NCBI GenBank assembly: GCA_947085205.1
Contig: CAMTVO010000016.1
Span: 1 to 38,443, forward strand
Length of the DNA: 38,443 bases
Source of the DNA: an uncultured Nitrospiraceae bacterium
GTDB taxonomy: Bacteria > Nitrospirota > Thermodesulfovibrionia > Thermodesulfovibrionales > Dissulfurispiraceae
Direction of reading: 5' to 3'
Shown one piece after another: positions 101-18,538 of this stretch (position 1 is the stretch's first letter; every line of letters starts with the position of its first letter). Position numbers and translations under genes: made by a program. The notes beneath the pieces were generated by a model that had not been told where the DNA came from, did not search any database, and saw nothing but the letters and a program-made list of their open reading frames with translations.

Positions 101-1309
101 TGGTCTATCGCTCCGCCTTCTTCATACGCAGCGGATGTTTCTATTCACGGCTTCTTTCAGGGCAATTATTCTTTCAGCAGCCGCTCATCCAATCCGGACG
201 GCGGCGATTTAAAATGGGCAGAGGAAAGGTTTCAATTGAAACTTGATGCCACAAAAGAACCATTCAGATTATTCATAAAGACAGATGCCATCTATGATCA
301 TATCGATGAAGAGCCTGAATTAGAATTAAGGGAAGGTTATATAGATTGCACAGCTAAAAAATGGGATTTAAGGTTAGGCAGACAGGTGATCACATGGGGT
401 CTTGGGGATTTAATCTTCATAAACGACATTTCCCCAAAGGATTATGAGGCATTTTTTTCCGGAAGGCCGATGGAGTATTTGAAGAAGGGAATTGACGGAG
501 TAAAACTCGGGGCATATCCTGCCTTTGCCTCGTTTGAGTTTATTGCGATACCTATATTTGAGCCTAACAATTATCCTAATACAAAAAGATTTTACATGTT
601 TGACCCTATGCCGAATGTTACAAACAGGGAGGAAAAAGACCCCGCATCAAATTTCAAAAACACCGAACTCGCCTTGAGAATTTACAGGGACATAGCAGGC
701 TTTGATGCATCCGTATATTTCTACCGCGGCTTTTTCCGCAAGCCGTATTTAATACCTGATGACCTCAATAACACGACAAAGATTACCCTCCATTACCCAA
801 AACTCTCTGTTTATGGTGCAAGCCTTCAGGGAAGGGCATTGGATGGAGTCTTGAGCCTTGAGGCAGGCTATTATGATTCAAGGCAGGACAGGTCTGGAAA
901 AGATTACACAATACCAAATTCCCAGACAAAATTTCTTATTGGTTATCAAAGGCAACTGTGGGAAGACTTTACAATCGGGTTGCAATACTACAATGAATAC
1001 ATGCACGACTATTCAGAATATGTAAAGAATCAGCCGTCTGGGCTGCCAAAAGACAGAAAGCTGTATCAACTTGCAACCGTAAGATTGACGCAACTGCTCA
1101 TGCACCAGGCATTAAAGCTTTCCTTCTTTTCCTTCTACAGCACATCAGACGGAGACTATATGTTAAATCCAGAGGTTAAATACAAATTCACCGATAGTGT
1201 ATGGGGCGCGGTTGGAGCAAACATCTTCGGCGGCGGTGAAAAATGGAGCCAATTTGGACAACTGGATAAAAACGACAACGTTTATTTACAATTAAGGTAT
1301 GAGTTTTAG
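2..1309 (+). CDS. Outer-membrane beta-barrel protein (DUF1302-like); 5' end lies before the window
   Basis: The frame of ORF 236..1309 is open back to base 2 and contains a signal peptide (LLRYCSAVLLLCWSIAPPSSYA-AD). Motifs LREGYID, LGRQVITWG and a C-terminal YxF typical of beta-barrels. Confidence 0.8.
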   Translation, partial: AVEQQSNRPAVTLWNKIFFKKLLRYCSAVLLLCWSIAPPSSYAADVSIHGFFQGNYSFSSRSSNPDGGDLKWAEERFQLKLDATKEPFRLFIKTDAIYDHIDEEPELELREGYIDCTAKKWDLRLGRQVITWGLGDLIFINDISPKDYEAFFSGRPMEYLKKGIDGVKLGAYPAFASFEFIAIPIFEPNNYPNTKRFYMFDPMPNVTNREEKDPASNFKNTELALRIYRDIAGFDASVYFYRGFFRKPYLIPDDLNNTTKITLHYPKLSVYGASLQGRALDGVLSLEAGYYDSRQDRSGKDYTIPNSQTKFLIGYQRQLWEDFTIGLQYYNEYMHDYSEYVKNQPSGLPKDRKLYQLATVRLTQLLMHQALKLSFFSFYSTSDGDYMLNPEVKYKFTDSVWGAVGANIFGGGEKWSQFGQLDKNDNVYLQLRYEF

Positions 1310-2198
1310 ACGTGTTCTCATTTCTTTTCTGGTAGTCTTTGTTTCAATCCTTACTGTAAAACCAGCTGCATGTGACGAAAAAGTTAAGGAATCTAAAAAA
1401 GAAGTTGTCTATTTCAGCGCAATAACGCTTTATCATCCTATCGTAATGTACCAGAGATACCAGCCCCTTATGGACTATCTTACAAAAAATAATACACCAT
1501 ACAGGTTTGAATTAAAGTTAAGCCAAGATTATAGGGATATAATAAATTTTCTTAAAAACAATAGAGTTCAGGTTGCATTGCTTGGCGGTGTCACATATAC
1601 GATAGCAAAGAAGGAATTCGGTGTGATCCCTATCTTGAGGCCTATTGGTGAGGATGGCAGGCCTTTTTACAGAGGTGTGTTTGTCACAAGAGAGACGAAC
1701 AAGGAGATAAACACGCTGTCGGACCTTAAAGGTAAATCTGTTGCCTTTGCCTCAAAACTATCAACAGCGGGGAATCTCGCCCCCCTCTATCACCTTTATT
1801 TGAAAGGCAACTTAAGGCTTGAGGATTTTTCAGAGTATGTGAACTTGAAATATCACGATTCTGTTGCGAGAGAAGTTTTGAGGGGGAATTTTGATGCAGG
1901 AGCTGTTATAGATTCTGTTGCAAACAAGTTTAAAAATAGAGGGCTGAAGGTAATAGCTGTTTCTGACCCCATACCGGGGCTTCCGATAGTGGTGCGTGCA
2001 GACGTATCGCCCGAGATTGTAAATGCCATAAAAAAAGCGCTCCTCGCCTTAGACTACAATAATCCTGAACACCGGAAGATAATGGAACAATGGGATGAAG
2101 AATTTAGATATGGTTTTGCCGAGGCAAAGGATTCTGATTATGATTCCATTCGCAAAATGATTGATTATCTGGGCAAAAAGGGCGTGAAAATACCGTGA
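1299..2198 (+). CDS. PhnD/SsuA-like periplasmic oxyanion-binding protein, likely the accessory sensor of the two-component system
   Basis: Signal peptide; YQPLMDYL, DLKGKSVAF-S-STAG, YHDSV and DAGAV motifs; directly upstream of the kinase. Confidence 0.85.
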   Translation: MSFRRVLISFLVVFVSILTVKPAACDEKVKESKKEVVYFSAITLYHPIVMYQRYQPLMDYLTKNNTPYRFELKLSQDYRDIINFLKNNRVQVALLGGVTYTIAKKEFGVIPILRPIGEDGRPFYRGVFVTRETNKEINTLSDLKGKSVAFASKLSTAGNLAPLYHLYLKGNLRLEDFSEYVNLKYHDSVAREVLRGNFDAGAVIDSVANKFKNRGLKVIAVSDPIPGLPIVVRADVSPEIVNAIKKALLALDYNNPEHRKIMEQWDEEFRYGFAEAKDSDYDSIRKMIDYLGKKGVKIP

Positions 2199-2214: not shown

Positions 2215-3696
2215 ATGATTAAGAGGCTCAAGAAATGGGTATTTAGTCTTCAGGGGAAGTTTATAATAGTTGCATCCCTCTGCATTTTAGTATTCACTAC
2301 CATTGGAAGTTTCATTATTATTTCACGGGAAGAAAACCTTTACAGAAAGGACATAATTAATCAGGGCAAGGTGCTTTCTGAAATAAGCAGAGTGATGCTC
2401 ACAAATGTCATGGTTTATAACGAATTAGGCATGATGAGCAATCAGGACTTGATTGACTATCTTGACTACTTTATTGTGAATCTCATGGAGCGCGATAAGA
2501 GAATCAGATATGCTGCAATTATTGACAACAGCGGGATGGTTATTGCACAGAGCGACCTCGGAGAATATGGGCAGAAGTGTAAAGATGAGCCGACCTTGAG
2601 GGCTATTGCTACACTCAAGACAAACATTACAGACGGCGATTTTTATGGCCAGCCTATTATAAATATTGCAACGCCGTTAAATATCAGCACGAAGAACTGG
2701 GGAGCGCTCCGCATCGGACTTTCAACAAAAGAGGTTAATCTGTCCATCGCTTCTCTTAAGAGAGAAATTGCCGCCCTCGTTGTCATATTTTCTGCCATGT
2801 CACTCATCATAATAAGCATTGGCGCACGCATTCTTTCAAGACCTGTAACAAGGCTTTCAAAAATCATGGACAATATCAAAACACACGGAGATATTGAGCC
2901 GCAAAATGTAGAACTAAGAGACAGAAGGGATGAAATCGGCGATCTCCAAAAGAGCTTTCTATGGATTCTCCAGAGGTTGAGAACGGCAGACAGGGAACAT
3001 AAAAATACCGTAGAGCTTCTTGCCCGGACAGAAAAGATGGTTTCAATTGGACGACTTGCATCAGGCGTTGCCCATGAAGTAAACAATCCATTAAGCGGCA
3101 TAACCCTCTGCTTTAAAAATCTCATGGAAGGCAATAAGGATAATCTAATGAGAGAAAAGCTGATACTTGCAATCAATGACGGACTTCAGAAGATTAAAAA
3201 TATCGTTGAGCAGCTTCTTGATTTCTCAAGGATGACCGTTACAGAAAAGACACCCGTTAATATCAATAACCTTATAAACAAGCTGCTCGTTCTGATTAAT
3301 TATCCTGCCTCAAAAAAGAACATAAAGATTGTTAGTGAGCTTTTTGAAGACATTCCAGAAATATCCATTGATGAAAACAAGATGTCGCAAGTGTTCATGA
3401 ATATAATGATAAATGCCATTCAGGCAATGGATGGAGGCGGCGCGCTTACAATCAGGACAGTAGTGGAAAATGGATTTTATGTGGTTTCCATCGAGGATAC
3501 AGGGGTCGGCATTTCGCCTGATATAATGCCCAGCATATTTGACCCTTTCTTTACGACAAAGGGAGTTGGAGAGGGGACAGGCCTGGGGCTCTCTGTGAGC
3601 AAGGGAATAGTGGAACAGCATGGCGGTATAATTGAGATTGAAAGTGAGGTTGGCAGGGGAACGACCTTCAGGGTTAAGATGCCATTTACGTTATGA
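2215..3696 (+). CDS. Membrane sensor histidine kinase (HAMP, HisKA, HATPase)
   Basis: Two TM helices; H-box GVAHEVNNPL; N-box NAIQA; DTGVG, FDPFFTTK and GTGLGL. Confidence 0.95.
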   Translation: MIKRLKKWVFSLQGKFIIVASLCILVFTTIGSFIIISREENLYRKDIINQGKVLSEISRVMLTNVMVYNELGMMSNQDLIDYLDYFIVNLMERDKRIRYAAIIDNSGMVIAQSDLGEYGQKCKDEPTLRAIATLKTNITDGDFYGQPIINIATPLNISTKNWGALRIGLSTKEVNLSIASLKREIAALVVIFSAMSLIIISIGARILSRPVTRLSKIMDNIKTHGDIEPQNVELRDRRDEIGDLQKSFLWILQRLRTADREHKNTVELLARTEKMVSIGRLASGVAHEVNNPLSGITLCFKNLMEGNKDNLMREKLILAINDGLQKIKNIVEQLLDFSRMTVTEKTPVNINNLINKLLVLINYPASKKNIKIVSELFEDIPEISIDENKMSQVFMNIMINAIQAMDGGGALTIRTVVENGFYVVSIEDTGVGISPDIMPSIFDPFFTTKGVGEGTGLGLSVSKGIVEQHGGIIEIESEVGRGTTFRVKMPFTL

Positions 3697-5072
3697 AGAT
3701 ACTCGTAATAGAAGACGAACTTTCTGTAAGACTCGGGATTGCCTGTACCCTGGAAGGTGCTGGATATAAGGTTAAGACTGCTGAAAACGGGATTGACGGC
3801 ATCAGCCTTTTTGAGAAAGAGAATTTTGATATTGTTATCACAGACCTGAAACTCCCCGGCGCTGACGGCATAGAGGTTTTAAAGGCAGTAAAAAATATCT
3901 CTCCTGATACAGGCGTAATCATTATCACTGCCTTTGCAGAAATTAAAACCGCTGTTGAGGCAATGAGGCAAGGCGCTTATGATTATCTCTCAAAACCTTT
4001 TGATCCCGCTGAGTTGCTTATCGTCATAGAGAGGTTCACAAAGCAGAGGGGACTTGAGCTTGAGAATATACGATTAAAAGAAAAGATAAGGGACAAAAAA
4101 CAGTTTGAGCAGCTTATCGGCGCAAGCCCTTCAATGCAGGCAATATTTCAAATGATTGAGGCAGTTGCAAAAACAGATTCATCAGTGATTATTTATGGAG
4201 AAAGCGGGACAGGAAAGGAGTTGGTTGCAAACGCCATCCATAATCTTTCACCGAGAAAAGAAAAAACCTTTATCAAGATAAACTGTGCCGCTATACCAGA
4301 GACCCTCCTTGAGACAGAATTATTCGGACATGAAAAGGGGGCATTTACAGGCGCTGTTCAGAGAAGAAAGGGCAAGTTTGAGATTGCAGACGGAGGAACA
4401 ATATTTTTTGATGAAGTAGGAGATATGGCCCTGCCGCTTCAGGCAAAGCTTTTGAGGGTTCTCGAAAATCATACATTTGAAAGGGTGGGCGGGAATGAAG
4501 CAATCACTGCAAATGTGAGAACCATTTATGCAACAAGAAAGAATCTGAAAGAGGAAGTAAAAGCAGATAGATTCAGGGAAGACCTTTACTACAGGATCAA
4601 TGTCTTACCTGTTACAATTCCACCTTTGAGAGATAGAAAAGAAGACATCCCCCTGCTTATTGAGCATTTCTTAAAATTTTTTAGCAATAAGACGGGAAAG
4701 AAGGATATGGCTATTACGCCTCTGGCAATAGAGAGGCTAATGAATTATGATTACCCTGGCAATGTAAGGGAGATTGAACATGCCATAGAAACGGCTGTAA
4801 TCCTGTGCAGAGGCAATGAGATAGACACCTGCTGCCTCCCTGCTGAGATAAGGGGCAATGAGATAAAAGAGGAGATAATGTCCATCCCTTGCGGCAGCCT
4901 TACCCTTGAAGAACGGTTAAAGGTATTCGAAAGGGACGCTGTTATGCAGACTCTGACTGCCACTGGCGGCAAAAAGAAAGAGGCTGCAGAAAAGTTAGGC
5001 ATCAGCAGGGAGACACTCTGGAGAAAGCTAAAGGAATATGGTTTTCCTGTAACCTCTGAATCAGAGGATTAA
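3693..5072 (+). CDS. Sigma54-dependent response regulator (NtrC family)
   Basis: Receiver domain (IEDE, TDLKLP), Walker A GESGTGKE, GAFTGA and a C-terminal Fis-type HTH; ATGA overlap with the kinase. Confidence 0.95.
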   Translation: MKILVIEDELSVRLGIACTLEGAGYKVKTAENGIDGISLFEKENFDIVITDLKLPGADGIEVLKAVKNISPDTGVIIITAFAEIKTAVEAMRQGAYDYLSKPFDPAELLIVIERFTKQRGLELENIRLKEKIRDKKQFEQLIGASPSMQAIFQMIEAVAKTDSSVIIYGESGTGKELVANAIHNLSPRKEKTFIKINCAAIPETLLETELFGHEKGAFTGAVQRRKGKFEIADGGTIFFDEVGDMALPLQAKLLRVLENHTFERVGGNEAITANVRTIYATRKNLKEEVKADRFREDLYYRINVLPVTIPPLRDRKEDIPLLIEHFLKFFSNKTGKKDMAITPLAIERLMNYDYPGNVREIEHAIETAVILCRGNEIDTCCLPAEIRGNEIKEEIMSIPCGSLTLEERLKVFERDAVMQTLTATGGKKKEAAEKLGISRETLWRKLKEYGFPVTSESED

Positions 5073-5193: not shown

Positions 5194-5209
5194 TGGCACT
5201 GCTTTTGCT
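5194..5209 (+). promoter_or_regulatory. Sigma54 (-24/-12) promoter
   Basis: TGGCAC-TGCTT-TTGCT matches TGGCAC-N5-TTGC and sits next to a sigma54 activator gene. Confidence 0.9.
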
Positions 5210-5323: not shown

Positions 5324-8300
5324 ATGGAGAAATTTTTTAATCCAAATATCAGCAGAAGGGCATTTTTGCAGTGGTCAACTGCCATAACGGCAACGCTTAC
5401 GATACCGGGACTTGCATCTGCATCTCCAAAGAGCATTGCTACTGCACTGGAGGAAAGATGGGTGCCTTCAATATGCACCCAATGTAACGGAAGATGTGCA
5501 TTGGCTGTGAGAATTGTCGGCGGCATAGCAGTAAAAATTGAGGGATTGAATGGTCAGAGGCCAGGAATAGCAGGCAATGTTTTGCCGCGTGATCCAATAA
5601 CCAACGGCAAGCTATGCGCAAAGGGCGCCGCAGGGCTTGAGCAGCTTTACAATCCTGACAGGATTAAATATCCGATGGTAAGGGTAGGAGAAAGAGGCTC
5701 CGGCAAATGGAAACGCATAAGCTGGACAGAGGCATATAACAAGATAATTGCAGGGGATAATAATGAAGGGATTGGATGGAAGGGGCTGAGAGATCATCAC
5801 GGCAAGTGGAATACACTTGCAGGCATGTACACAAAGAATGGAGATGCAGACGGAGCTAACCCATCCGATGACCTCAAAAGGTTTCCTGAAACCATGATAA
5901 ACGCCTGGGGCAGACATCAGGCTGACTGGTATCAGGATAGATGGCTTAACTCTTATGGTCATTACCCTTACAGATATCAAAGGTGAGGACTCTGTTACAG
6001 CGGCTTCTTGCAAGCCGCAAGGGTAACTGTCAGTGGTGCTGGAGGCTTCCCGATAACGACTCCTGACGCTGATTATATGAGTAAAGGAGATGTGATTATC
6101 CTTTCAGGGGTGAATGCAATGGTGGCTTCCTATCCGGCAAATCCATTGGCACAGCGCCTCGTTGCTGCTCAGGAAAGGGGCGTAAAACTTGTTGCCGTTG
6201 ACCCTCGCATGTCAGAGACGGCAATAGTCTGCCGCGGAGACAAAGAAAACAATGTCCCGGGCTGGATTGGAATTAAACCCGGAAGCGGCGGCTTAACTGC
6301 ACTGGGAATGCTTAAAGCATTAGCAGAAGGGTCTGTTCCGGGCGTTACTTATGACGAGCTTTCACCGTCAAGAAAAGGCGGACCCGACAGAGGCTATGGA
6401 TTTAACCCTCAAGGATTTGGGAACGAAGAGGCAGCAGATACTCTTTTTGTATCCACCCTTTCAGGTGACCATAAAGCAGGCACAACAACTCTGACTGTAT
6501 CCATTACAGGGAAAGGTGCCTCAACAATAGATAAGGTAAAGAGACTTGTTGGCGCTCAGGCCGGTCTTAACTTTGGCGTTAAAGGCAAGCAGGAGATTGT
6601 GGATGCAATAGCAGTTAAGACAGAAGGCGATAAGGCTGTAATAACAATTGCACAGCCTGCGATGTATTCCCATTCAAGCGGCTCGGTCATCACAGAAGAC
6701 CTTAACCTGAAAGATTACGTGAGAGGGCTTGATTGGAGCCTTATATCCAAAGAAACAGGCACTTCCAGAGAGATTATTACTAACATGGCAAAGATGTTCT
6801 TTGGCGCTGCAAAGGCAGGCAAAAAGGCTGTCTGGGAGTCAAAGCGCGGGGATGCCATGCTCTCCAACGGCCTACAGGCAATAAGGTCTGGGTTATTGCT
6901 CAATGCCTTTGTCCCTGCCAACTTCGATAAAAGGACATTTGGTGTTGAAGGAGGCTGGGCACATTACCATTCAGGCTCACTAAAGGCCCGCCCAAGCATG
7001 GCGAGGCACAGCTTTGAAGGTGGTGATTATTACTACTTCAGACTCTGGTTATTGGAAGATGCGCCTGCAGGCACAAAGACGTTCAAGGTTGGCGCCGGGC
7101 AAGCTAAAAAAATGGCAAAGCTCTTAAAGAGACCTGCTGAATTTTATAGAAAGATTGCATTGAGGAGTTCACCGAGCATAGCAGAGCTTACAGCAGACCA
7201 GAAACTTCCGACCGATGCGCTGATTACCGGGGCAATACTTGCAAAGGCAGGAAGTGTTATTAAGGCAGGCTCTGATATCTTGAAGGACTCTGTTGTCAAG
7301 GATGCAGCCACATGTCCTGCGATTGGCGGAGAGTGGTCAGACGGCTTATTGAAGGCAAAGATGACACTCACTGCTGATGCAACATTAATGAAAGATGTTG
7401 TCCTTGCTGATGGAAGCCTTATTAAAGAAGGCTCTGTGCTTAAAACAGGCTCACATGTATGGGATGCAGGCAATAGGGAGATAATCGGCGGCGCATATAA
7501 ACATGGAGACGGCGGCACAGTAGAGAGCGCTGTGCCGGTTAGTGTTGATGTAAGCGCAGGGACAGTTACATTGGATTTTGAAGGAGGCAAAGGTTCCCGT
7601 TACTTCCATAAGGCAACTACAACAATTAAGTGGGAACTTCCATATCTCATGCACGGACTCCTTCATCACGCATACCCGGTGGCAGAAGAACAGCAGACCC
7701 ACCATGTAATTGCAAATATCGGCAAGGTATTTCCATATGGTGTTTTGATGCAAAAGTATTGCAACTGGGCGCTCTCTTTTCCCGACAACATTGATGTAGT
7801 TAAGGCGCTTAAAGACACAAAGCGAATTCCCTATCACATTGCCGAAGATGTATTTCTCGGGGATGTGAGCGCCTATGCTGATATTCTGCTTCCTGCAGAG
7901 ACATATCTTGAACGATGGGAATATGTCCCGGCATTCTGGATGAGCTATGTGAGAAAGACCAATCTCCGCCAACCTATACTGTTTGACATATCCCATGCGC
8001 GTGCAGGAAAGTTTGTCAACGGCGTGCTCTTTGAGGCAAAGGACTTACGGGATATGTATTATGACATAATCAACATGATAAACTGGGACGGAAGCTATAC
8101 CGGCCCTATACTGAGAGATGGAAAACCTGCAGGTGTAAATGATGGCTGGGCATTTGGGACAAGAACCTATAAATTTGATGACAAAGGCAACATCACGGGC
8201 TGGGATGATTTAGGCAAGGTAGGCCCGCCTGACAGCAATGGCGTAAGGTATGGCCCAAAGGAAAAAGGAGGCAACGGCACAGCAGACCCTTATGGAGCGC

Positions 8301-9631
8301 TTTTCTGGCATAAAAGCAGGTTAAGGGTAATGGGGGCAAGACCTGCTGATGCGCTTTCCGGAGATAGAGGTGCTGCCGACAGCACGCTTTTTCCGCTTGA
8401 TCCGGATATAGGACAAATTATGATGGAGGCAAGCAGGGTATCCTTTGCTGATGCTACAACTGATGAAAAGAGGCTTGAATACATGATGAGCAACGGGGTC
8501 ATTTATAAGACGGACACCGACAAGCTTGCATCAGACCTGACACTTGCGAGTGCTGTAACCACTACAGGAGGCATAGATGCCCTGGATAAATCCAAGCTTG
8601 CAGCAGGCACTATCCTAAAAGCAGGAACTCTCGTTCCCAATCCAGTTGACCAAAAGGCAATAGGAGGAGGTTATTCTGCTAATAGGTTGACCGGAGATAT
8701 TACAGTTCCATCGGATGTAACGATTGCAGGAAGTATTCTCATTGCGCCGGAAAGCATGCTCAAAGAAAAGACCATGCTCAAAGGCGGTTCTTCTGCATGG
8801 AGCGCAAAAGACCGTGCATCTCTGGGAGGTAGGTATGCTCCTGTGAACAAGTTCTCCCTCGGACCTGTGGGTCTGGATGGAAAAATGGGAAAATATAAAG
8901 AAAATCTTGATATTCCTGGCGTTCCCGGAAACAGGACAAAGTCAAAGGCAAATCTCAAGGTTCAGGCATTTGCAGTTACATTGGCAGGTGTTCCAAACCC
9001 TGGACAAAGGAAAATTGAAGATCTTTCAGCAGAGAGAGGCAATACCTGCTATCATGGTCTTCCTGAATGGGAACCTCTTGATGTATCACTTGCCCGACCA
9101 GAAGATGACCTTAGTCTCATTACATTTAAGGCGTCAGTTTATACAAAGACAAGATTGGCTTCCCAGCCGTCCCTTAAAGAGATTATGTGGGAGAATGAGA
9201 TTGTGATTAACCCTGATGATGCGAATAAACGAGGCATAAAGACAGGCGACAAGGTAGTCGTTGAGGCAAGGCAGAGGACGCCAGGCACAACAGAATATCG
9301 CATTGAAAAGGTTGAAGGCCCTGCCAGGGTGACAAAAGGCATCAGACCCGGTGTGGTTGGTATTTGCGGCATGTTCGGACATAAATACGCAGGTAAATTC
9401 AGTGTTGATGGTAAAGCTAACAGACTGGATTCAAAGGCTGCTGCTTGGCCTGTTCAGAAACTTCCTGATGATCTTGACCCCGGCTATAAAGGTGAATATG
9501 TATGGAGCAGATACGACGGACATCAGAACACAGGCATCAACACAAACAAGGTAATCTGGAGCCTTACCGAGCCCATAGGCGGCGGGGCACAGTATCATGG
9601 AACAAAAATTCGTGTCTATAAAAAGGCATAA
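5324..9631 (+). CDS. Tat-exported Mo/W-bisPGD oxidoreductase catalytic subunit (Psr/Phs/Arr/Ttr-like branch); probable selenoprotein of 1435 aa with Sec221
   Basis: RBS AGGAGG; Tat motif SRRAFLQ; CxxCxxxC...C Fe-S motif. ORFs 5324..5986 and 6008..9631 share one frame and are separated only by TGA 5984-5986 (YQR-U-GLCYSG). Also VDPRMSET, YADILLPAETYLERW and a C-terminal molybdopterin-binding domain. Confidence 0.85.
6000..6018 (+). promoter_or_regulatory. Candidate bacterial SECIS element
   Basis: GCGGCTT-CTTGC-AAGCCGC, a perfect 7-bp stem 13 nt after the in-frame TGA; possible lower stem ACTCT/AGGGT. Confidence 0.7.
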
Positions 9632-9646
9632 AGGAGGTGGTAAACA

Positions 9647-10435
9647 ATGACACAATATGTATATGCATATGATTCAAATAGATGTGTTCGCTGCCACGCC
9701 TGCGAGACAGCCTGTAAGATGGAAAATCAGGTTCATGTGGGGCATGGAGCAGGAGCCGCCGAGGGAGGTTATGGCTGGGGCGGACCTGGAGAAAAAGGAC
9801 CAAGATACCGCAGGGTGCGAACATTCGGAGATGGGCCCGGGACATATTTTCTTTCTATGTCCTGCAACCACTGCAGCGACCCTGTGTGCTGGAAGACATG
9901 TCCGCTCAAGGGCAAAGACCTTTTTGATCCAAAGGGTGCGATTTACAAGGAAAAAACAGTTGGCGCTGTCATAATCCAGAACGGAAAATCTGGCACGCCG
10001 AAAATCTGCGATCCTGAAAAAGCAAAGTGCGACAGAATATGTCAGAAGGCATGTCCATATGAGGCTCCTCAGTGGAACCCTGTCACAAAGGTGATGGAGA
10101 AATGCCACCTCTGTGTCCTCACAAGACTCAAAAGACCTGACCCTGATGGAGTTAAAAGACCAGCGTGTGTTGATATCTGCATGGGCAGGGCGCTTCAGAT
10201 AACAGATGAGAGGACAAAACCATACAAACTCGTCAGAAGCAATAAGGGAAGATACAAAGGAAAGACAGCAGATACTGAGGATGGAGGCGCAACAGCCTTT
10301 GTTGAAACAAAGGAAGGGATACCGCCTGATGAGCAGCATCCAGGTGACTTCACTACCGATTTAACAAAGGTCGGCGTTGCACCGCCGGACATCACAAAAC
10401 CGAATACTATCGTGAGACCGAAGGCGATGTGGTAA
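9647..10435 (+). CDS. 4Fe-4S electron-transfer subunit (DmsB/NrfC/PsrB-like)
   Basis: CxxCxxCxxxC, CNHCxxPxCxxxCP, a variant third motif, and KCxxC...PACxxxC; RBS AGGAGG. Confidence 0.9.
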   Translation: MTQYVYAYDSNRCVRCHACETACKMENQVHVGHGAGAAEGGYGWGGPGEKGPRYRRVRTFGDGPGTYFLSMSCNHCSDPVCWKTCPLKGKDLFDPKGAIYKEKTVGAVIIQNGKSGTPKICDPEKAKCDRICQKACPYEAPQWNPVTKVMEKCHLCVLTRLKRPDPDGVKRPACVDICMGRALQITDERTKPYKLVRSNKGRYKGKTADTEDGGATAFVETKEGIPPDEQHPGDFTTDLTKVGVAPPDITKPNTIVRPKAMW

Positions 10436-10449
10436 AAACGAGTAGATTT

Positions 10450-10476
10450 AACAAGGGGGACGAAGTCCCCCTTGTT
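10450..10476 (+). terminator. Strong intercistronic hairpin (partial terminator or mRNA stabiliser)
   Basis: AACAAGGGGGAC-GAA-GTCCCCCTTGTT, a perfect 12-bp stem; only a weak U-tract follows. Confidence 0.65.
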
Positions 10477-10493
10477 CCCCAAAGGAGGAGACC

Positions 10494-11195
10494 TTGAAGA
10501 CAGATTTTAAGACAGACTGGGAACTTGGAGCAAGGGTTTTTGGTTATAGTTTTCTTTTTAGAGGCTTTTTGGAAGAGCCGACAAAGGATTTTCTTGAGAA
10601 ATTAAAAAATGAGGCTTTTCTGTCTTACTTCCCTTACATAAATGAGAACGATGATATTAAAAATGGTGTTAGATTTGTGGAGTCATACATTAATGAGAGC
10701 TCCTCAATTGAAAAACTTACTGATGAATTAGCAGGCGACTATGCAGGGCTTTTTTTAGGCCCTGGCAAGGTGATAGCTCCTCCGTGGGAATCAGTATATG
10801 TTTCCGGAGGCGGACTCATTTTCCGTGAAGAGACCTTTGAGGTGAGGAAAAGATATGCAAAGCACGGGCTTTTACCTGAAAAGTTAAATAAGGAGCCTGA
10901 TGACCATGTAGGGCTTGAACTGCAATTTATGTATCTGCTTTCTTCAAAAACCATCGATGCCATAGATTCAGGAGACTACAAAAAGGCAAGGGAACTGTTT
11001 CATGATCAGAAAGAATTTCTGGAAGAACATCTGCTTAAATGGTCGCCAAGATTTTCAGACGATATATATCACAATGCAGAGACATCGTTCTATCGTGGAA
11101 TAGCAAGGATACTCAAGGGCTTTGTGACTGAAGATCATGGAAAATTAAATGAATTAAGCGGAATTTTTAATTTTGATACCGTAGACGTTTCATGA
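10494..11195 (+). CDS. TorD/DmsD family maturation chaperone
   Basis: YAGLFLGP, PPWESVY, EPDDHVGLELQFM and HLLKW; TTG start with AGGAGG. Confidence 0.92.
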   Translation: MKTDFKTDWELGARVFGYSFLFRGFLEEPTKDFLEKLKNEAFLSYFPYINENDDIKNGVRFVESYINESSSIEKLTDELAGDYAGLFLGPGKVIAPPWESVYVSGGGLIFREETFEVRKRYAKHGLLPEKLNKEPDDHVGLELQFMYLLSSKTIDAIDSGDYKKARELFHDQKEFLEEHLLKWSPRFSDDIYHNAETSFYRGIARILKGFVTEDHGKLNELSGIFNFDTVDVS

Positions 11196-11239
11196 AATTG
11201 AAGAACTTGAAAGAAACAATGAAATAAATGGAGGTTTTG

Positions 11240-12859
11240 ATGAAAAGGGCGATGATTGTTTTTCTTGTTTTATCGCTGATTTCTCCGTCTTCAGTATTTG
11301 CAATGGAGAAAGACGAGATTCTCAAAAAACTTGAAAATGTTCTTAAAAAGAACGAGGAGCTTTTCAAGGAAGTGGAGCAATTAAAAAGGCAGATGCAGGA
11401 TATAAAGTCAAAAGAGGATACTCAGGACAAAAAAATCTCTGCACAGGAAAAGAAAGTAAAGGATGTGGAAAAGCTTGCGAAAAAGGCAGAAGGCATCTCA
11501 AGGTTTGAGGTTTGGGGAGAATACAGGTTTAAAGCAGACTCTATCCATGCTAATTTTGACCGATTTACCGGATTCAGATGGAATCCGAATGTAACAATGG
11601 GCGGCGCAGCGATAGGCGCTTTCCAGCCTAAACAGTATGAGGAATTCACTGCAAGTGACAATAGCCTCCTGACAAACCGTTTAAGGCTTAAGTTTAAAGT
11701 AAAGGCAACAGATGATGTTGACTTTACAGGACGGCTTGCTATGTATAAGATATGGGGACATCAGACAGCAGCGCCGCTTGAGGGTAACTACGGCGGAAAC
11801 TATGGCTTTATGCCGCAGAATTCAATGCTTTTTGACGGCAACACATCGTATAAGCCTTCAGACAGCGCATTAAAGGTTGACAGGGCATTTGTAAACTGGT
11901 ATGAGCCTGGAGGATTCCCCGGTATAATATCAGTTGGAAGAAGACCTTCCGCAGGCGGTCCGCCTTTACATCTCAAGCAGGGTATTGAGCGGGATGCCAC
12001 GCCTGCAGGCCTCGGTGTTGATTATGCCATGGATGGGCTGGCAATTATATACACGCCTGATATTTCTTCGCTCCCCGGTTTTAAGGCACGCGCATGTTAC
12101 GGCAAGGGATTTGAATCAGGACTCAGAGACAGCAATGTAAACACACTTAAAGATGCAACATTTGCAGGTTTTAATTTTGATATATACGAGAACAGAGAAA
12201 CAGGAACACTTGCGCAGATTAACTTATACAGGGCCTTTAATCTCAATGACCTTCCTGAAAAGGCAACTGCAAATATCGGTGATGTTAACCATGCAACAGC
12301 GCTCTTTATGACAAAGACAGCAGGGCTTGACTGGTTTGCATCAGCAGGGTTGTCAAAAACATATCCAAAGAATGTCTCCGGCTGGAGACCTCGTGTAGAT
12401 ATGAATAGCGACGGCGATGTTGATGATGCTGGAGATGTTACCATGTCTCCCGGCGGGCTCCTTTATGACGAAGGCGGCAATAAAAAGGGACGTTCAGGTT
12501 ATGCTGTTCATGTTGGGACAAGGATTCCTTATGGAAAGAGCAAGTTCGGGCTTGAATATAACTATGGCTCAAAATACTGGGTGAACTTTACCCCTGCGTC
12601 TGACGATATTTACGGCAGCAAACTTGCAACCAAAGGACATGTTGGCGAACTTTACTGGCTCTATGACCTAACCAAAAAACCTGTGTGGAAGCTCAGCAAG
12701 GTGCTCTTCAGGTTGGGCTATCAGCATTATATATTTAATTACAGCGGAAGCGGATTGCTTTTGGGAGAGCCCAAGAAATTGAGCGGTAACCCGTCGCTTC
12801 TGTATCCGTCTCCGAGGACAATGGACAATGTATATGCATCATTTGATGTTCATTTCTAA
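11240..12859 (+). CDS. DUF3373-type outer-membrane porin with N-terminal coiled coil
   Basis: Signal peptide, coiled coil, RLAMYKIWG, SVGRRPS, EYNYGSKYW and a terminal F; start chosen from GGAGG spacing. Confidence 0.75.
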   Translation: MKRAMIVFLVLSLISPSSVFAMEKDEILKKLENVLKKNEELFKEVEQLKRQMQDIKSKEDTQDKKISAQEKKVKDVEKLAKKAEGISRFEVWGEYRFKADSIHANFDRFTGFRWNPNVTMGGAAIGAFQPKQYEEFTASDNSLLTNRLRLKFKVKATDDVDFTGRLAMYKIWGHQTAAPLEGNYGGNYGFMPQNSMLFDGNTSYKPSDSALKVDRAFVNWYEPGGFPGIISVGRRPSAGGPPLHLKQGIERDATPAGLGVDYAMDGLAIIYTPDISSLPGFKARACYGKGFESGLRDSNVNTLKDATFAGFNFDIYENRETGTLAQINLYRAFNLNDLPEKATANIGDVNHATALFMTKTAGLDWFASAGLSKTYPKNVSGWRPRVDMNSDGDVDDAGDVTMSPGGLLYDEGGNKKGRSGYAVHVGTRIPYGKSKFGLEYNYGSKYWVNFTPASDDIYGSKLATKGHVGELYWLYDLTKKPVWKLSKVLFRLGYQHYIFNYSGSGLLLGEPKKLSGNPSLLYPSPRTMDNVYASFDVHF

Positions 12860-12874
12860 AATCATGAGAAAGAG

Positions 12875-13294
12875 GTGAATGAAGTGATATTTGGTTTAGA
12901 GATTAAAAAAGATAACCCTAACATAGTAGTAGAGCAACATGGCAATAGGTCATCAGCGCCACAGCGCTACTGCTCTGCTGCGCTACTGCTCTTCTTTATT
13001 TTCTTTCCTGCGGCTGCCTTTTCATTTGATGTAGAGATAGTGGCAGATCCCTCTTCAGGTGAGGCGCCACTGGAAGTAGAATTCTCAGCAGTAGTTAAGG
13101 CTGGGACCGCAAAAAGTTTCCAATGGGAATTTGGAGATGGTGGAAAGTGCAAAGAGCAAAATTGTAATCATACCTTCAACAGAGGAGGTACATACACAGT
13201 TAAGCTTACTGTTGTGAGTGATGCTGGCGTCACGGTTACCAAAACCATGTCCTTTGAGGTTCAGAGAAGGAAGGGCGGTTGACCGACTGCTTAA
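12875..13294 (+). CDS. Secreted PKD (Ig-like) domain protein; ends at 13282 unless the TGA is read as Sec (…RKGG-U-PTA, stop at 13294)
   Basis: Hydrophobic signal ending AAFS; PKD motifs GEAPLEVEF, WEFGDG and GTYTVKLTV; TGA 13280-13282 followed by a SECIS-like hairpin. The start codon is uncertain. Confidence 0.7.
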
Positions 13295-13312
13295 TCGCAT
13301 CTGGAGATGCGA
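13295..13312 (+). promoter_or_regulatory. Candidate SECIS element of the PKD gene
   Basis: TCGCATC-TGGA-GATGCGA starts 12 nt after the TGA; G is second in the loop; no U-tract follows. Confidence 0.55.
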
Positions 13313-13464
13313 AAAACTGAGTATAAAATAACCGATAAGATGATGAACGACACGATTTAAGCAAAATTATTAGAGGATGAAAAGGCAAAGAAAAGCATTG
13401 ATGACATCTTATGCCTTCGTGAAGGGCATAAGGAATGAGTAACAAACAGAGAAAGGAGGAAGGA

Positions 13465-15861
13465 ATGAGTAACAGTAATCTATCAAGAAGAGATTTTCTG
13501 AAGTATGCAGGTGCAGGTGCAGTTATAGCTGGAATGCCATCAATACTTTATGGCGAAACAAAAGAAAAGGCCCCGAAGCCTTACACAGAAGACGGCATAG
13601 CCCCTGTGCCTGACAAAGTTGTTACAGCAGGCTGTCCGTGGTGTCAGACAGGCTGCAGTATGAAGGTTCATGTAAAGGATGGCAGGATTGTGAATATTTA
13701 TGGCAATCCTGATGACCCTGTGACAGGCGGAAAGCTCTGTCCCAAGGGGCAGGCAAGTATAGGTTTGCTTTATAACAAATACCGCCTGAAGTCGCCATTA
13801 AAACGAATTGGACCAAGGGGCAAGCCAGAATCCTATCAGGAGATAAGCTGGGAACAGGCATTAACAGAGATTGCTGAGAAGTTGAAAATGGTGAAGGAGA
13901 AATACGGACCTGAAGCCTTTGCATGGTGGACTGCCGGTAGGAGCGAATCACAGGCAAGGGCAGGACTTACAGGTACATTTGAAAAACTTTATGGCACACC
14001 GCATCGTGAGGGCACAGGGCCCTTCTGTAACCTTGCAGGAACATCTGCTTCCAACTCTATCTTAGGACACAATAATCCACCATGGATATATACGAGGGAA
14101 GACTTCGGCAACGCAGACTGGTATATGTTTGTCGGCAGCAATTCGGCAGCCTGTAAGACCGTGGCTTTCGGTATGGTAAATGACGAGAGGGTAAAGAGAA
14201 AGATAAGACTCATTGTCGTTGACCCGAGGATGACAGAGACTGCGAGCAGGGCTGATTTGTGGCTTCCCATTAAACCGTCCACAGATATGGCATTGGCGCT
14301 CTCAATGATGTATCACATTATTGAGAAAGACCTGCACAACAAGGAATTCATTGATAAAAAGGTGCTTGGTTTTGACAGGCTCAAGGCATTTCTCTTTGAA
14401 AAAAAATACACGCCTGAATGGGCAGAGAAGGTGACAGGCATTCCGGCAAAGACAATCAAGGGTATTGCTGAAGAATACGCAAAGACAGAGAAGGCGATTA
14501 TCATGGGCAATGCCGGATTGAGTCACCATACAAACGGTCATCTGACCCACAGAGCGTTCTTTATGCTCGCGGCAATAACAGGGCATTTCGGCAAGCCCTC
14601 GATGGGCTATGGATGCGGCAATACAGGGGCTACACCAATGGGAAGCATCTCAGTGCCCCCTGAAAAAGAAGTAAAACCTAAAAAACAGAGGCTCGGGAGG
14701 TCGCCTGCTGCATGGGTTGAGCCGATGATTACAGGAAAGCCTTATCCCATAAAAGCATTCATGTCAACATGCAATCCCCTCGTACAGTGGGGAGACATTG
14801 AAAGGGTAATGACAGCACTGGATAACCTTGATGTCTCGGTATATTACAATATGTTCCCGAGCATTGAGACGCTCTATTTTGACTACATCCTTCCTATCTC
14901 TCCATGGGCTGAATCAGGAGGTGTGGCGCCGGTATCGGATGAGAGGAGGAATGTCTTTGTCCCGCAGATTATTCAACCGTTGCATCAGGCAAAGCCTGAG
15001 AGGTGGATATTTATTGAACTTGGACAGAAGATGGGCTGGGGTGATATTTTTAAGGACGAATACAAAGACCCTGTGGTTTTACAGAGGGCGATGGCAAAAA
15101 AGACAGGCTTTTCGCCTGAACGGTTCTTTGCCAAAAAAGATTACGCCTTAAGAGGCCCCCTCCCCTCTCCTGACGCCCCTGAAATCGGCACACTCTATAC
15201 CGAGGCACACGGAGTGCCGGGCAAAAAGGGACAGTTCCCGAGACCTTCGGGCAAGATAGAGATATGGACGGAAGATTTGGAAAAGGCATATAAGGCTCAA
15301 GGTATAAGTCCTCTGCCTGAATTTTATGTTGACCCGGAGATAGGCATGAAGGATGGGCTTCCCTACCTTGAATATCTTGATGACGATTCATCAGAAGGGG
15401 TCACATCTCAGATGAAAGGGATCGTGGCTGTCGGCAATATGAGGGCGCTCCGCGTAAAGATCAAATACCCCGAGAAACCTGAAATATCAGGCTTTAACAT
15501 GTATCTTACCTCTGGCAGACCCTCTGCATCGCATTTTGGCGACGGCTCACACTGGATATGGAGTCTTAATGAGCAGATGCCTGACCAGTACTGCATGATT
15601 CATCCTGAAAAGGCTAAAGAGACAGGGGTTAAAGACGGCGATATGGTCAAAGTAGAAGGACTGAAAGGCTCTGTTACAGCAAAGGCATGGGTTTACGAAG
15701 GTATAAGGAAGGATACGGTTTTTGTACCGAACACATATTCAGAAAAACAGCCCTTTACCCAGTGGAGGTCATTAAACTTTATTGTTGATAAAAACAAACG
15801 GTGCCCTGTATCAGACCAGATAAACTATAAAGGGCTGATATGCAGGGTCACAAAGGCATAA
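13465..15861 (+). CDS. Second Tat-exported Mo/W-bisPGD oxidoreductase catalytic subunit (Cys ligand)
   Basis: RBS AGGAGG; SRRDFLK; CPWCQTGC...LCPKG; YGTPHREGTGPFC; VDPRMTET; YPIKA; C-terminal domain IV. Confidence 0.92.
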   Translation: MSNSNLSRRDFLKYAGAGAVIAGMPSILYGETKEKAPKPYTEDGIAPVPDKVVTAGCPWCQTGCSMKVHVKDGRIVNIYGNPDDPVTGGKLCPKGQASIGLLYNKYRLKSPLKRIGPRGKPESYQEISWEQALTEIAEKLKMVKEKYGPEAFAWWTAGRSESQARAGLTGTFEKLYGTPHREGTGPFCNLAGTSASNSILGHNNPPWIYTREDFGNADWYMFVGSNSAACKTVAFGMVNDERVKRKIRLIVVDPRMTETASRADLWLPIKPSTDMALALSMMYHIIEKDLHNKEFIDKKVLGFDRLKAFLFEKKYTPEWAEKVTGIPAKTIKGIAEEYAKTEKAIIMGNAGLSHHTNGHLTHRAFFMLAAITGHFGKPSMGYGCGNTGATPMGSISVPPEKEVKPKKQRLGRSPAAWVEPMITGKPYPIKAFMSTCNPLVQWGDIERVMTALDNLDVSVYYNMFPSIETLYFDYILPISPWAESGGVAPVSDERRNVFVPQIIQPLHQAKPERWIFIELGQKMGWGDIFKDEYKDPVVLQRAMAKKTGFSPERFFAKKDYALRGPLPSPDAPEIGTLYTEAHGVPGKKGQFPRPSGKIEIWTEDLEKAYKAQGISPLPEFYVDPEIGMKDGLPYLEYLDDDSSEGVTSQMKGIVAVGNMRALRVKIKYPEKPEISGFNMYLTSGRPSASHFGDGSHWIWSLNEQMPDQYCMIHPEKAKETGVKDGDMVKVEGLKGSVTAKAWVYEGIRKDTVFVPNTYSEKQPFTQWRSLNFIVDKNKRCPVSDQINYKGLICRVTKA

Positions 15862-15879
15862 CAAGGGAGGGATATAATA

Positions 15880-16413
15880 ATGAGTCAGTATTCAATAATG
15901 GTTGATACAGAGAGGTGCATTGGCTGCAAGTCATGTGAAACTGCCTGCAAGCTGGAAAACGGCATACCAGCAGGCAGATACAGGATAAAGAACCTTTGGA
16001 TAAACCCTCAGGGAGGCAAAAGGCTTGATTTTATGACCATGCCTTGCATGCACTGCGAAAAGCCTGCATGTGCTGCTTCATGTCCTGTAAAGGCTATTTC
16101 AAAGCGAAAAGAGGACGGTATTGTTTTGATAGACAAGAAAAAGTGTAATGGGTGCCAGTACTGTGTCCATGCCTGTCCTTACGGAGCTATTAACTTTGAT
16201 GCAGAAAAAAAGGTTGCGGACAAATGCACATATTGTCTGCACAGGCTTCAGAGAGGCGAGGAGCCTGCCTGCGTGTCCAAATGTTCTGGACATGCGTTAA
16301 GCCTTGGCAAAAAAGATGACCTCATTGCAAAGGCGAAATCTGGCGGTCGGAAAACAAGGGACATCAATAAATTCGGTATAAACCCATCAACATTTTATTT
16401 AGAGAGGGTATGA
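15880..16413 (+). CDS. 4Fe-4S electron-transfer subunit (DmsB/NrfC-like)
   Basis: Four canonical Cys clusters (CIGCKSCETAC, CMHCEKPACAASCP, CNGCQYCVHACP, KCTYC..PACVSKC). Confidence 0.93.
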   Translation: MSQYSIMVDTERCIGCKSCETACKLENGIPAGRYRIKNLWINPQGGKRLDFMTMPCMHCEKPACAASCPVKAISKRKEDGIVLIDKKKCNGCQYCVHACPYGAINFDAEKKVADKCTYCLHRLQRGEEPACVSKCSGHALSLGKKDDLIAKAKSGGRKTRDINKFGINPSTFYLERV

Positions 16414-16862
16414 CCATGAAAAAGCGCAAAGTTCAAGGTTCAAAGTTAAAAGTTAAAAGTTTTTTCAAAAAACTGTTCACTGTTCACTGTTCACTGTTCA
16501 CTGTTTTCTTCCTGTTCACTGTCGTTGATGCGGATGCCTCGGAAAAGGCAAAGAAATATCCTAACTGGTATGAGATGCACATTAAGCAGGGCATAATTAA
16601 AGAAGATGGAAGCGGCGCTGCACAGGGTGTTGCAGGGGATGCAATTATGCGTGCAATACAGGCTCGGCGTGTGGATGGCTTGAATCCGCAGGTCTGTGTT
16701 GGCTGCCACAGCAAAGGCGGTCCAGGGACATGGCTCTATGGAAATCCCAAATATATGCAGGTGAAATGGACGCCTGCTAAAAAGTATAAAAAGACAGCAG
16801 CCGATAGAGTTGAGGTGAAAAGGCCGTATATAAGTGGTATAAAGGTTAGTGAAGACCAATAG
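16410..16862 (+). CDS. Small exported protein with one CxxCH (putative monoheme cytochrome c)
   Basis: Signal peptide ending ADA; CVGCH; translationally coupled on both sides. Confidence 0.6.
   Translation: MTMKKRKVQGSKLKVKSFFKKLFTVHCSLFTVFFLFTVVDADASEKAKKYPNWYEMHIKQGIIKEDGSGAAQGVAGDAIMRAIQARRVDGLNPQVCVGCHSKGGPGTWLYGNPKYMQVKWTPAKKYKKTAADRVEVKRPYISGIKVSEDQ
16427..16506. repeat. Heptamer tandem repeats (MAARGTT)x5 and (ACTGTTC)x5
   Basis: Read directly at 16427-16461 and 16472-16506. Confidence 0.85.
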
Positions 16863-17463
16863 CAAAATACTGCCTGCTGATATATTTGCCCAGTTGAGCG
16901 AATTTTTCAAGGAGCCTACAGAGGAATTTGCAGAGGATGTGTCCTCTGGGAGGCTCCTTGAGTTCTTTCAGACAGTCTTTGAAAGTTTCGGAATAGATGA
17001 CACACCGGTTTTAGATGGCGTAAAGGTCGAAGGGGATGTTTTCACTGTTCTCAAGGAAGAGTATAAAAGGCTTTTTGTTGGTCCCTTGCCCCTCTATATT
17101 GTACCTGTTGAGAGCGTTTATAAAGTCTGGACTTCAGACCCTGAATGTAAGCTGCCCATTGCAGCAGAAAAAGGCTATCTGATGGGGGACCCTGCGATAG
17201 ATATGATAAAGAGGTATCAAGAACAGGGAATTGTAATACCTGATAAATATTCCTCTATGCCTGACCACATTGCCCTTGAGCTGGAATATATGGCATTTTT
17301 GCTAACCAACGGTGATGAGGAAAATCAGAAAGAGTTCATGGCTTCTCATCTTGACTGGCTGGATGAACTTGCAGAGGATATCAAGAATTTTAAAATGGGC
17401 AGCAGCTTTTATTCCGCAGGTGCAGAAGTAACTGCTCTCATCGTTTCTCAATGTATTAAATAA
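16849..17463 (+). CDS. Second TorD/DmsD family chaperone
   Basis: EYKRLFVGP, PVESVY, PDHIALELEYM and HLDW. Confidence 0.9.
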   Translation: MKTNSKILPADIFAQLSEFFKEPTEEFAEDVSSGRLLEFFQTVFESFGIDDTPVLDGVKVEGDVFTVLKEEYKRLFVGPLPLYIVPVESVYKVWTSDPECKLPIAAEKGYLMGDPAIDMIKRYQEQGIVIPDKYSSMPDHIALELEYMAFLLTNGDEENQKEFMASHLDWLDELAEDIKNFKMGSSFYSAGAEVTALIVSQCIK

Positions 17464-17473
17464 ATATAATCAG

Positions 17474-18538
17474 CCATTCAAGAGAGGGCACGCATGTTAT
17501 TCAAACGCAACGCACCTTGTCATTGCGGATGATAAACATAAAAACAACAGGAAATTCCTGAGAATGAATGATATTGACCCCGCTTTGACAGGCGATGCAG
17601 GAAATGCCTTTGTCGTTCTCTCAAAGGACACTATACCTGTTGCCTTTGATAAGGCTGAAGAGGCTGCGCTCGATGCAGATACGCCAATAAAGGATTCTGC
17701 CGGAAAGGAGATAAAGGTAAAGACCTCTTTCTGCCTTATGAAGGAAGGCGTGATGGAGCACACCATTGATGAGTATGCAAAACTGGCAGGAGTTGAAAAG
17801 TCGCAGATTGAAAAGGCTGTAAAGGAGTTCACCTCCTATGGCACAAGGGCTGCTGTTACACAGTATCACGGCGCAGGGAATTATATAAGCGGAACCTATG
17901 CATCCTATCCTGTGGCAGTTCTCAATGCGATGGTTGGAAATGTTGACCGGAAGGGAGGATACATGATAGGCGGAGGCGGCGCAGCCGCATGGAACACCGG
18001 CATGTATGACCTCAAGGAATTCGCAGGCAAGAGAAAACTGCAGGGGCCGATTATCACAAGAGAGAAGTTCGCCACACCCCATGCGCCTACCCTCAAGTTT
18101 GCAGGAGTGCGCACCCCGACCATTGAGCCACTTACAGGCACAACATCTGATGGCAGACCGTTCTCTGAAGAGACATTCTTAATTGATGTCGCAAAGGCGG
18201 CAGGACTGCCCGGCTTCGGAGACAATGCCATCAAAGGTAAGGATGGAAAGATGTATCCGCTCAACAAAGCTGAAGGCTACTACCTAAGGGCTATCGCCAA
18301 TGTTGCAACAGGCGCAAAGGTTTCTCAGGCATCTCAGGAGGAGATAGACTTTGTCGAAAGGAACTACCCTGTTGCAAAACACAAGGACATGCTTCCAGAA
18401 AGCGAATGGAAACAGGTCTGTTATGTGCTTGCGAGGGGCGGGGTTTTTGACAAGAGCTACGAAGATGTGTTTGACGGTGAAAAGCACAAATTGCCTTTAC
18501 TTTTAATCGATTTTTCCTGTATTCTTAAAAATCCGTGA
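17474..18538 (+). pseudogene. ttrA: Internal fragment of a tetrathionate reductase subunit A-like gene
   Basis: The frame is open upstream of the called Met (YSNATHLVI) and contains KEFTSYGTRAAV, LNAMVGNVDRKGG, PGFGDNAI and LARGG. There is no Tat/Fe-S N-terminus, no RBS and no C-terminal domain. Confidence 0.75.

Follow-up and report, generated by a model that had tools for sequence, protein, structure and literature searches.

A predicted selenocysteine three residues before the probable metal-ligand cysteine in a molybdopterin oxidoreductase of an uncultured Nitrospiraceae bacterium

Selenium sites in the DMSO reductase superfamily

In the DMSO reductase (MopB) superfamily, selenocysteine (Sec, U) is known as a ligand of the active-site metal, and here we describe a gene of this superfamily whose predicted Sec would stand beside, instead of replacing, the metal-binding Cys. 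The gene occupies positions 5324-9631 of a 38,443-nucleotide stretch of an uncultured Nitrospiraceae bacterium (assembly GCA_947085205.1, contig CAMTVO010000016.1), called the window below. In the papers cited here and below, all described Sec-containing family members use Sec as the ligand (PMC7331816, PMC10100899). Wells 2020 (PMC7331816) assigns Cys to the lineages of Psr, Arr, and Ttr, and in its reported Fwd and Fdh searches no homolog had Sec away from the active-site position; Wells 2023 (PMC10100899) agrees and includes an unnamed lineage sister to TtrA/SrdA. Table 1 of a 2026 selenoproteome review (PMC13188914) contains no members of this superfamily other than FdhA and FwdB, and the review describes the role of selenium in molybdenum/tungsten (Mo/W) enzymes as unresolved. 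A 2026 preprint (10.64898/2026.09.15.751765) mentions "other molybdopterin oxidoreductases" bearing a selenocysteine insertion sequence (SECIS) with no positions given, which may bear on novelty. Our literature search, outside which most subscription literature lay, returned no description of Sec at a non-ligand position in this family, and the predicted placement thus appears not to have been described. Sec is also a ligand in some gut-bacterial dehydroxylases outside the formate dehydrogenases, a usage that would not cover a non-ligand Sec.

The window enzyme resembles the clade of TtrA, SrdA, and the alternative arsenate reductase in its twin-arginine translocation (Tat) signal, [4Fe-4S] cluster, G-R pocket motif, equal-length ligand loop, and Cys ligand, and it groups with TtrA-like proteins (Shimodaira-Hasegawa-like approximate likelihood ratio test, SH-aLRT, 99; profile match probability 100 over 903 columns). 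However, the loop reads R-U-G-L-C in the window enzyme and H-T-S-I-C in that clade, and the window enzyme is ~400 residues longer, the extra residues including four repeats, with an operon that lacks an NrfD anchor. ArrA (6CZ7) and PsrA (2VPW) are the top fold matches, PsrA being also the best sequence match, and the window enzyme resembles them in the Cys ligand, the kept Arg165 equivalent, and the ArrX-like binding protein upstream. FdhA, FdhG, FdhH, and FwdB belong to the same superfamily and have a UGA with a downstream hairpin, but their Sec is the ligand within a UHxP motif, whereas the window enzyme has Cys in the ligand column, Sec at -3, and no His after Sec. In MccSep, which is periplasmic and occurs in Thermodesulfovibrionia, the Sec is not a ligand but stands 3.6 Å away from the Cys that ligates the heme, and polysulfide and selenite reduction depend on it; MccSep is a heme protein of another fold, with its Sec coming from a distant domain and not from a UxxC motif, and the analogy is one of mechanism alone (PMC13510729).

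The probable Sec codon, the ligand column, and a second lineage

The sole internal stop in the frame is the TGA at codon 221. Reading it as Sec joins the two default open reading frames (ORFs), 5324-5986 (220 aa) and 6008-9631 (1207 aa from a TTG start), into one protein of 1435 aa with the junction YGHYPYRYQR-U-GL-C-YSG (YQR-U-GLCYSGFLQAAR at Sec221). The original prediction of a single ~1435-aa Mo enzyme is borne out by this one frame with one stop and by homologs that stop at the same residue; its remark that the TTG start sacrifices the ligand Cys is also correct, as Cys224 lies in neither called ORF. An independent contig from another study spans 5837-6036 with one C>T difference and an intact TGA, and a sequencing error at 5984-5986 is therefore ruled out.

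Searching with the N-terminal piece gave six matches, three of them full-length (90, 74, and 73% identity), each ending in YRYQR. All 13 cluster members of the 90% match, one of which is the window's own sequence, end at YQR, and every one of the 14 N-terminal homologs, self excluded, that extend as far as the site (representatives 73-90% identical) stops at the same residue; P0128 and P0304, both ending upstream of the site, were left out of this count. Four close C-terminal homologs (86, 84, 77, and 61%) start just past the site, three of them at the same false start. A related locus, L021, with 79% identity over the whole protein, has the TGA followed by GLCYSGF, and it shares the hairpin and the downstream genes. 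No homolog found in this lineage has a sense codon at the site, be it for Cys, for the Trp, Arg, Ser, or Gly that the original prediction had named as telling against Sec, or for any other residue. The lineage is rare: only three of 1.84 billion representatives matched at E <= 1e-30, all fragments of the lineage itself; a lineage-specific query had no match among 400 further genomes of the phylum; no close homolog was present in 40 relatives; and two scans of a species-genome collection, from which near genomes are possibly missing, gave no relative. One homolog-cluster member is labelled Thermodesulfovibrionales by its source, which suggests Nitrospirota as the home of the lineage.

Which residue meets the metal was judged from the alignment register. 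We searched 273 proteins, many of them kin, by BLAST, and 207 alignments span the site: Cys stands opposite residue 224 in 151 of these (132 with His opposite 220) and opposite 221 in six, three of which have Cys at both positions. The profile alignment to 33 TtrA/Arr-like proteins is free of gaps, placing YGHYPYRYQR-U-GL-C on G-T-x-N-x-x-x-H-T-S-I-C with the Gly212-Cys224 spacing of the nearest clade, and the MAFFT alignment agrees. The original assignment of Cys224 as the canonical ligand, with U221 additional at -3, is upheld by all three alignments, and Cys224 very likely occupies the ligand column of the family. The P-x8-C spacing that the prediction had noted as shared with a paralog in the window is coincidental; in the multiple alignment, Pro215 lines up with the Asn of G-T-x-N and does not correspond to the Pro of the paralog. 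An initial reading of Sec221 as the ligand, made by way of the TtrA motif C-G-L-A-Y, was dropped on the BLAST, profile, and multiple-alignment register. In ArrA numbering, Cys193, which we take to be the ArrA metal ligand, corresponds to Cys224, and Arg165, Tyr166, His189, Ser190, and Lys198 correspond to Arg197, His198, Arg220, Sec221, and Leu229, with only the first Arg of this pocket kept. The numbering uses a +40 offset fixed from Cys61 in PMC10654088, where the ArrA pocket residues are named as hydrogen-bonding the substrate and an action at Mo(VI)O/Mo(V)OH is ascribed to Ser190 and Lys198. In an AlphaFold model that covers residues 40-919 (mean predicted local distance difference test score, pLDDT, 65; about 80 near the site), Cys224 stands at the start of a helix, and a fold search with this model ranks ArrA first and PsrA next.

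The 7-bp hairpin of the original prediction was found again by folding; it begins 13 nt past the TGA (6000-6018, loop CUUGC, pair probabilities 0.84-0.99) above a lower 5-bp stem (5994-5998/6023-6027). An Rfam search returned no SECIS family match. One of the 44 nt counted from the TGA differs between the window and L021, against 215 of 1071 overall, but this conservation supports a SECIS weakly, because two other stretches are conserved as strongly. The genome encodes tRNA-Sec (selC), selA, selB, and selD, the selD carrying an in-frame TGA of its own. Homolog conservation, Sec machinery, and alignment register together favor the TGA as a Sec codon, as first proposed, and the window gene is in all probability a real Sec-encoding gene. 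Other in-frame TGA candidates of the genome (G000) lie at C1 + 32635, C46 minus-strand 13934, C22 minus-strand 14404, and C19 28630-29544; their contexts are ILG-U-YIGRG, YCGGPT-U-MFSP, the fdhA RL-U-HAP, and selD.

A second lineage, a ~1000-aa TtrA-like protein found in relatives, has the motif N/T-H-(U/C)-x-R-C, that is, an intact H-x3-C with U or C at -3. Its query matched 17 of 401 genomes of the phylum sample; across the six near-complete close matches and G005, the codon is TGA in three and Cys in four of the seven genomes (one further partial match ends upstream of the site and is uncounted). All three TGA genomes encode selB. The Sec and Cys versions are ~94% identical over the N-terminal third, and a hairpin ~17 nt past the codon is found in the Cys forms too. 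Among 120 database matches listed, 64 exceed 55% identity; all 50 of these that span the site, the query included, have H-C-x-R-C, and the other 14, taken from protein records only, start past the site, as expected for Sec forms. The 56 more distant matches have Thr (53), Ser (2), or Leu (1) in this column. By source name the members belong to Nitrospirae, Rokubacteria, Desulfobacterota, Planctomycetes, and Proteobacteria. Cytochrome c, Fe-S, TorD-like, and porin-like genes flank the lineage, with an NrfD gene in G018, and the proteins score 344-366 bits against the TtrA model NF011567; the lineage merits a family model of its own.

In a tree of 73 rows chosen from some 280 (motif columns dropped, LG+G4, SH-aLRT only), each of the two lineages has a support of 100 and the Thr/Ser rows lie between them. 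Constraining both to one clade was rejected by the approximately unbiased test (p-AU 7e-48, 28 rows), a test set after the tree had been seen and in which the window lineage has a long stem. CxxC also occurs in the same ligand loop of P0225, P0045 (G-C-A-Q-C), and P0262 (N-C-H-Y-C) in a distant tree region, possibly further independent cases. Because the two lineages are not one clade, Thr/Ser rows stand between them, and CxxC occurs elsewhere, a thiol or selenol at the -3 column appears to have arisen at least twice or been lost many times.

Architecture and gene neighborhood

The Fe4S4, molybdopterin oxidoreductase, and dinucleotide-binding domains, together with the fold, place the window enzyme in the DMSO reductase superfamily, and by its model scores it is outside every named family tested: 87.5 bits against a cut-off of 1750 for TtrA (NF011567), 50.7 against 1600 for ArrA (NF041714), 162.5 against 694 for the PhsA model used for PsrA/PhsA/SrrA, and 79.7 and 58.2 against 666 and 814 for the Fdh models. 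The tree groups it with TtrA-like rows and not with PsrA/PhsA/SrrA, and it has neither Sec at the ligand column nor UHxP. The best explanation is a periplasmic oxidoreductase with a predicted Mo/W-bis(pyranopterin guanine dinucleotide) cofactor (Mo/W-bisPGD), from an unnamed lineage near TtrA/SrdA and ArrA/PsrA. The four repeats resemble one another in all six pairs (0-1 of 500 shuffles score as high). The first pair is modeled with short strands and a block pLDDT of 65-93, and a PDB fold search with it gave no clear match (best Z 3.2). The coordinates are collected in Table 1.

Table 1. Features of the window and of the second lineage
Feature	Position	Strand	Basis or remark
Mo/W-bisPGD catalytic subunit, single CDS, 1435 aa	5324-9631	+	DMSO reductase family; PF04879, PF00384, PF01568 above cut-off; model fold match
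Predicted Sec221, in-frame TGA, -3 to ligand Cys	5984-5986	+	ArrA Ser190 column; homolog stops and alignments
Cys224, canonical Mo/W ligand position	5993-5995	+	151/207 alignments; near-invariant column; helix start in model
Twin-arginine signal, SRRAFLQ ... ASA	5324-5422	+	Read directly; no Pfam TAT match here, precomputed for 74% homolog P0123
[4Fe-4S] ligands Cys51, 54, 58, 98	5474-5617	+	Domain match and sequence
First tandem pair of ~50-aa repeats, lineage-specific insert, residues 618-726	7175-7501	+	Repeat comparison
Second tandem pair, same repeat, residues 1062-1172	8507-8839	+	Repeat comparison
Molybdopterin dinucleotide-binding domain, residues 1263-1369	9110-9430	+	Pfam
Putative SECIS: lower stem, bulge, 7-bp upper stem	5994-6027	+	Folding; false TTG start 6008 in loop
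DUF1302 protein	236-1309	+	Pfam/NCBIfam
PhnD/ArrX-like binding protein	1299-2198	+	Structure matches PtxB (1e-25), ArrX (2e-17)
Sensor kinase	2215-3696	+	Pfam/NCBIfam
Sigma-54 response regulator	3693-5072	+	Pfam/NCBIfam
Sigma-54 -24/-12-like site, TGGCAC-N5-TTGC	5194-5208	+	Matching site upstream of L021 homolog; resembles the consensus
4Fe-4S subunit	9647-10435	+	Pfam/NCBIfam
TorD-like chaperone	10494-11195	+	Pfam/NCBIfam
DUF3373 protein	11228-12859	+	Pfam/NCBIfam
PKD protein	12875-13282	+	Pfam/NCBIfam
Lineage 2, TGA form, G018:C12	L070:6529-9522	-	
Lineage 2, TGA form, G202:C70	L071:5183-8176	+	
Lineage 2, TGA form, G368:C162	L046		
Lineage 2, Cys forms			G232, G174, G063, G005

The downstream gene order (9647-13282) is the same in L021, and Pfam/NCBIfam found no NrfD anchor of the TtrC type among the genes at 9647-17463. 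The trio of binding protein, kinase, and regulator, which also precedes the lineage-2 gene in G174, probably regulates the Sec-enzyme operon. A second Mo-enzyme module at 13435-17463 consists of an A subunit, an Fe-S B subunit, a small CxxCH protein, and a TorD-like protein; in the tree its A subunit, which has Gly at -3, forms a long branch distant from the Sec enzyme. An orphan TtrA-like fragment at 17432-18538 scores 178 bits against TtrA; it comprises the middle and C-terminal parts, lacks the N-terminal one, and looks like a deletion remnant.

Possible roles of Sec221

The original prediction offered a second-sphere nucleophile, a selenylsulfide, and an alternative ligand as roles, and we rank the second-sphere nucleophile highest. 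Sec221 is probably a non-ligand catalytic residue, a chalcogen substrate has about an even chance, and the whole scheme, with Cys224 as metal ligand and Sec221 as a second-sphere selenolate attacking such a substrate, is slightly favored. Sec221 would take the place of the Ser/Thr lining the substrate pocket beside the exchangeable ligand of the metal. Arg197 and Arg220 would hold the substrate, an S-S compound or an oxyanion of sulfur or selenium (tetrathionate, polysulfide, thiosulfate, or selenite), and the selenolate would attack it to give a Se-S or Se-Se adduct. The adduct could then be cleaved by reduced Mo, possibly via Cys224 or a Mo-sulfido group, and the [4Fe-4S] cluster, together with the Fe-S subunit, would re-reduce the Mo. 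By analogy, MccSep would be the nearest precedent for such a mechanism.

Several points weigh against this scheme. Read-through with Sec incorporation, site geometry, and substrate are all predicted, and the ArrA residue roles come from a secondary source. At the DNA level the TGA codon itself comes from three places, namely the window, L021, and a near-identical contig; for the other homologs the evidence is the stop position. The window lineage is small, its members are kin, and it has no Cys form of its own, the Sec/Cys interchange being seen in a different lineage. The folding energy of the hairpin is ordinary against shuffles (z = -0.18, 0.10, -0.75, and -0.09 over the four spans folded), and the 5' G that the selD and fdhA hairpins of the same genome have in the loop is missing from it. 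The structure model has no cofactor and yields no site distances. In addition, the binding protein, similar to phosphite and arsenate sensors, may hint at an oxyanion substrate for which no covalent nucleophile is required, and the upstream sensor could equally indicate arsenate or another oxyanion.

In hydrogenases with a UxxC motif, both residues bind Ni. It is conceivable, if unlikely, that Sec221 and Cys224 both bind the metal or exchange during turnover, U-x-x-C serving as a chelating or switching motif: the motif is listed for hydrogenase large subunits (PMC13188914, Table 1), the -3 column maps to the metal pocket, and thiol or selenol residues alone occur there in both lineages. However, a single protein ligand is stated for family members (PMC9516567), a second ligand would presumably obstruct the open site or dislodge a pterin, and relatives have Ser/Thr, a hydrogen-bond donor, at this column. 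A reversible Sec221-Cys224 selenylsulfide, or oxidant scavenging, that protects or switches the site with no substrate contact seems less probable still. UxxC is a common thiol-redox motif of selenoproteins (PMC13188914) and stands at a helix N-terminus in the model, but such a bond requires the ligand Cys to leave the metal, and the lineage-2 Cys/Sec, invariant wherever the site is seen, suggests a role in every turnover.

Improbable as well is Sec221 as the sole ligand, as in formate dehydrogenase, with the loop register shifted by three residues. The described usage of Sec in the family, the resemblance of U-G-L-C-Y to the TtrA motif C-G-L-A-Y, and the divergent match P0197, which aligns C-G-L on 221 and has no Cys at 224, speak for it, whereas the counts of Cys opposite 224 and 221, the ungapped Gly212-Cys224 spacing, and the intact H-x3-C of lineage 2 with U at -3 speak for Cys224. 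We give the least credit to a true stop, that is, a pseudogene or a split two-chain enzyme. The hairpin is unremarkable, and 27 of 623 long TGA-ended frames in the genome continue in frame for at least 150 codons, most apparently into adjacent genes; yet homologs as distant as 73% identity keep the stop position, with the frames intact before and after it, the restart at 6008 omits Cys224 while GLCYSGF is unchanged in L021, and lineage 2 has Sec/Cys pairs at the same column.

With Cys224 as the ligand, a Sec beside it would separate selenium as ligand from selenium as nucleophile. Lineage 2 offers natural Sec and Cys versions, of which the latter need no Sec machinery for expression, and this makes the role of selenium directly testable. 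We consider it fairly probable that Mo/W-bisPGD enzymes evolved a (U/C)-x-x-C site at least twice, with the Ser190 position of ArrA taken by a selenol or thiol that acts together with the Cys-ligated metal, either in the covalent transfer of chalcogen or as a switching second ligand. If true, (U/C)-x-x-C would be an undescribed active-site class hidden by split annotation: gene callers split such enzymes and lose the ligand Cys, which hides uncharacterized periplasmic sulfur, selenium, or arsenic redox enzymes.

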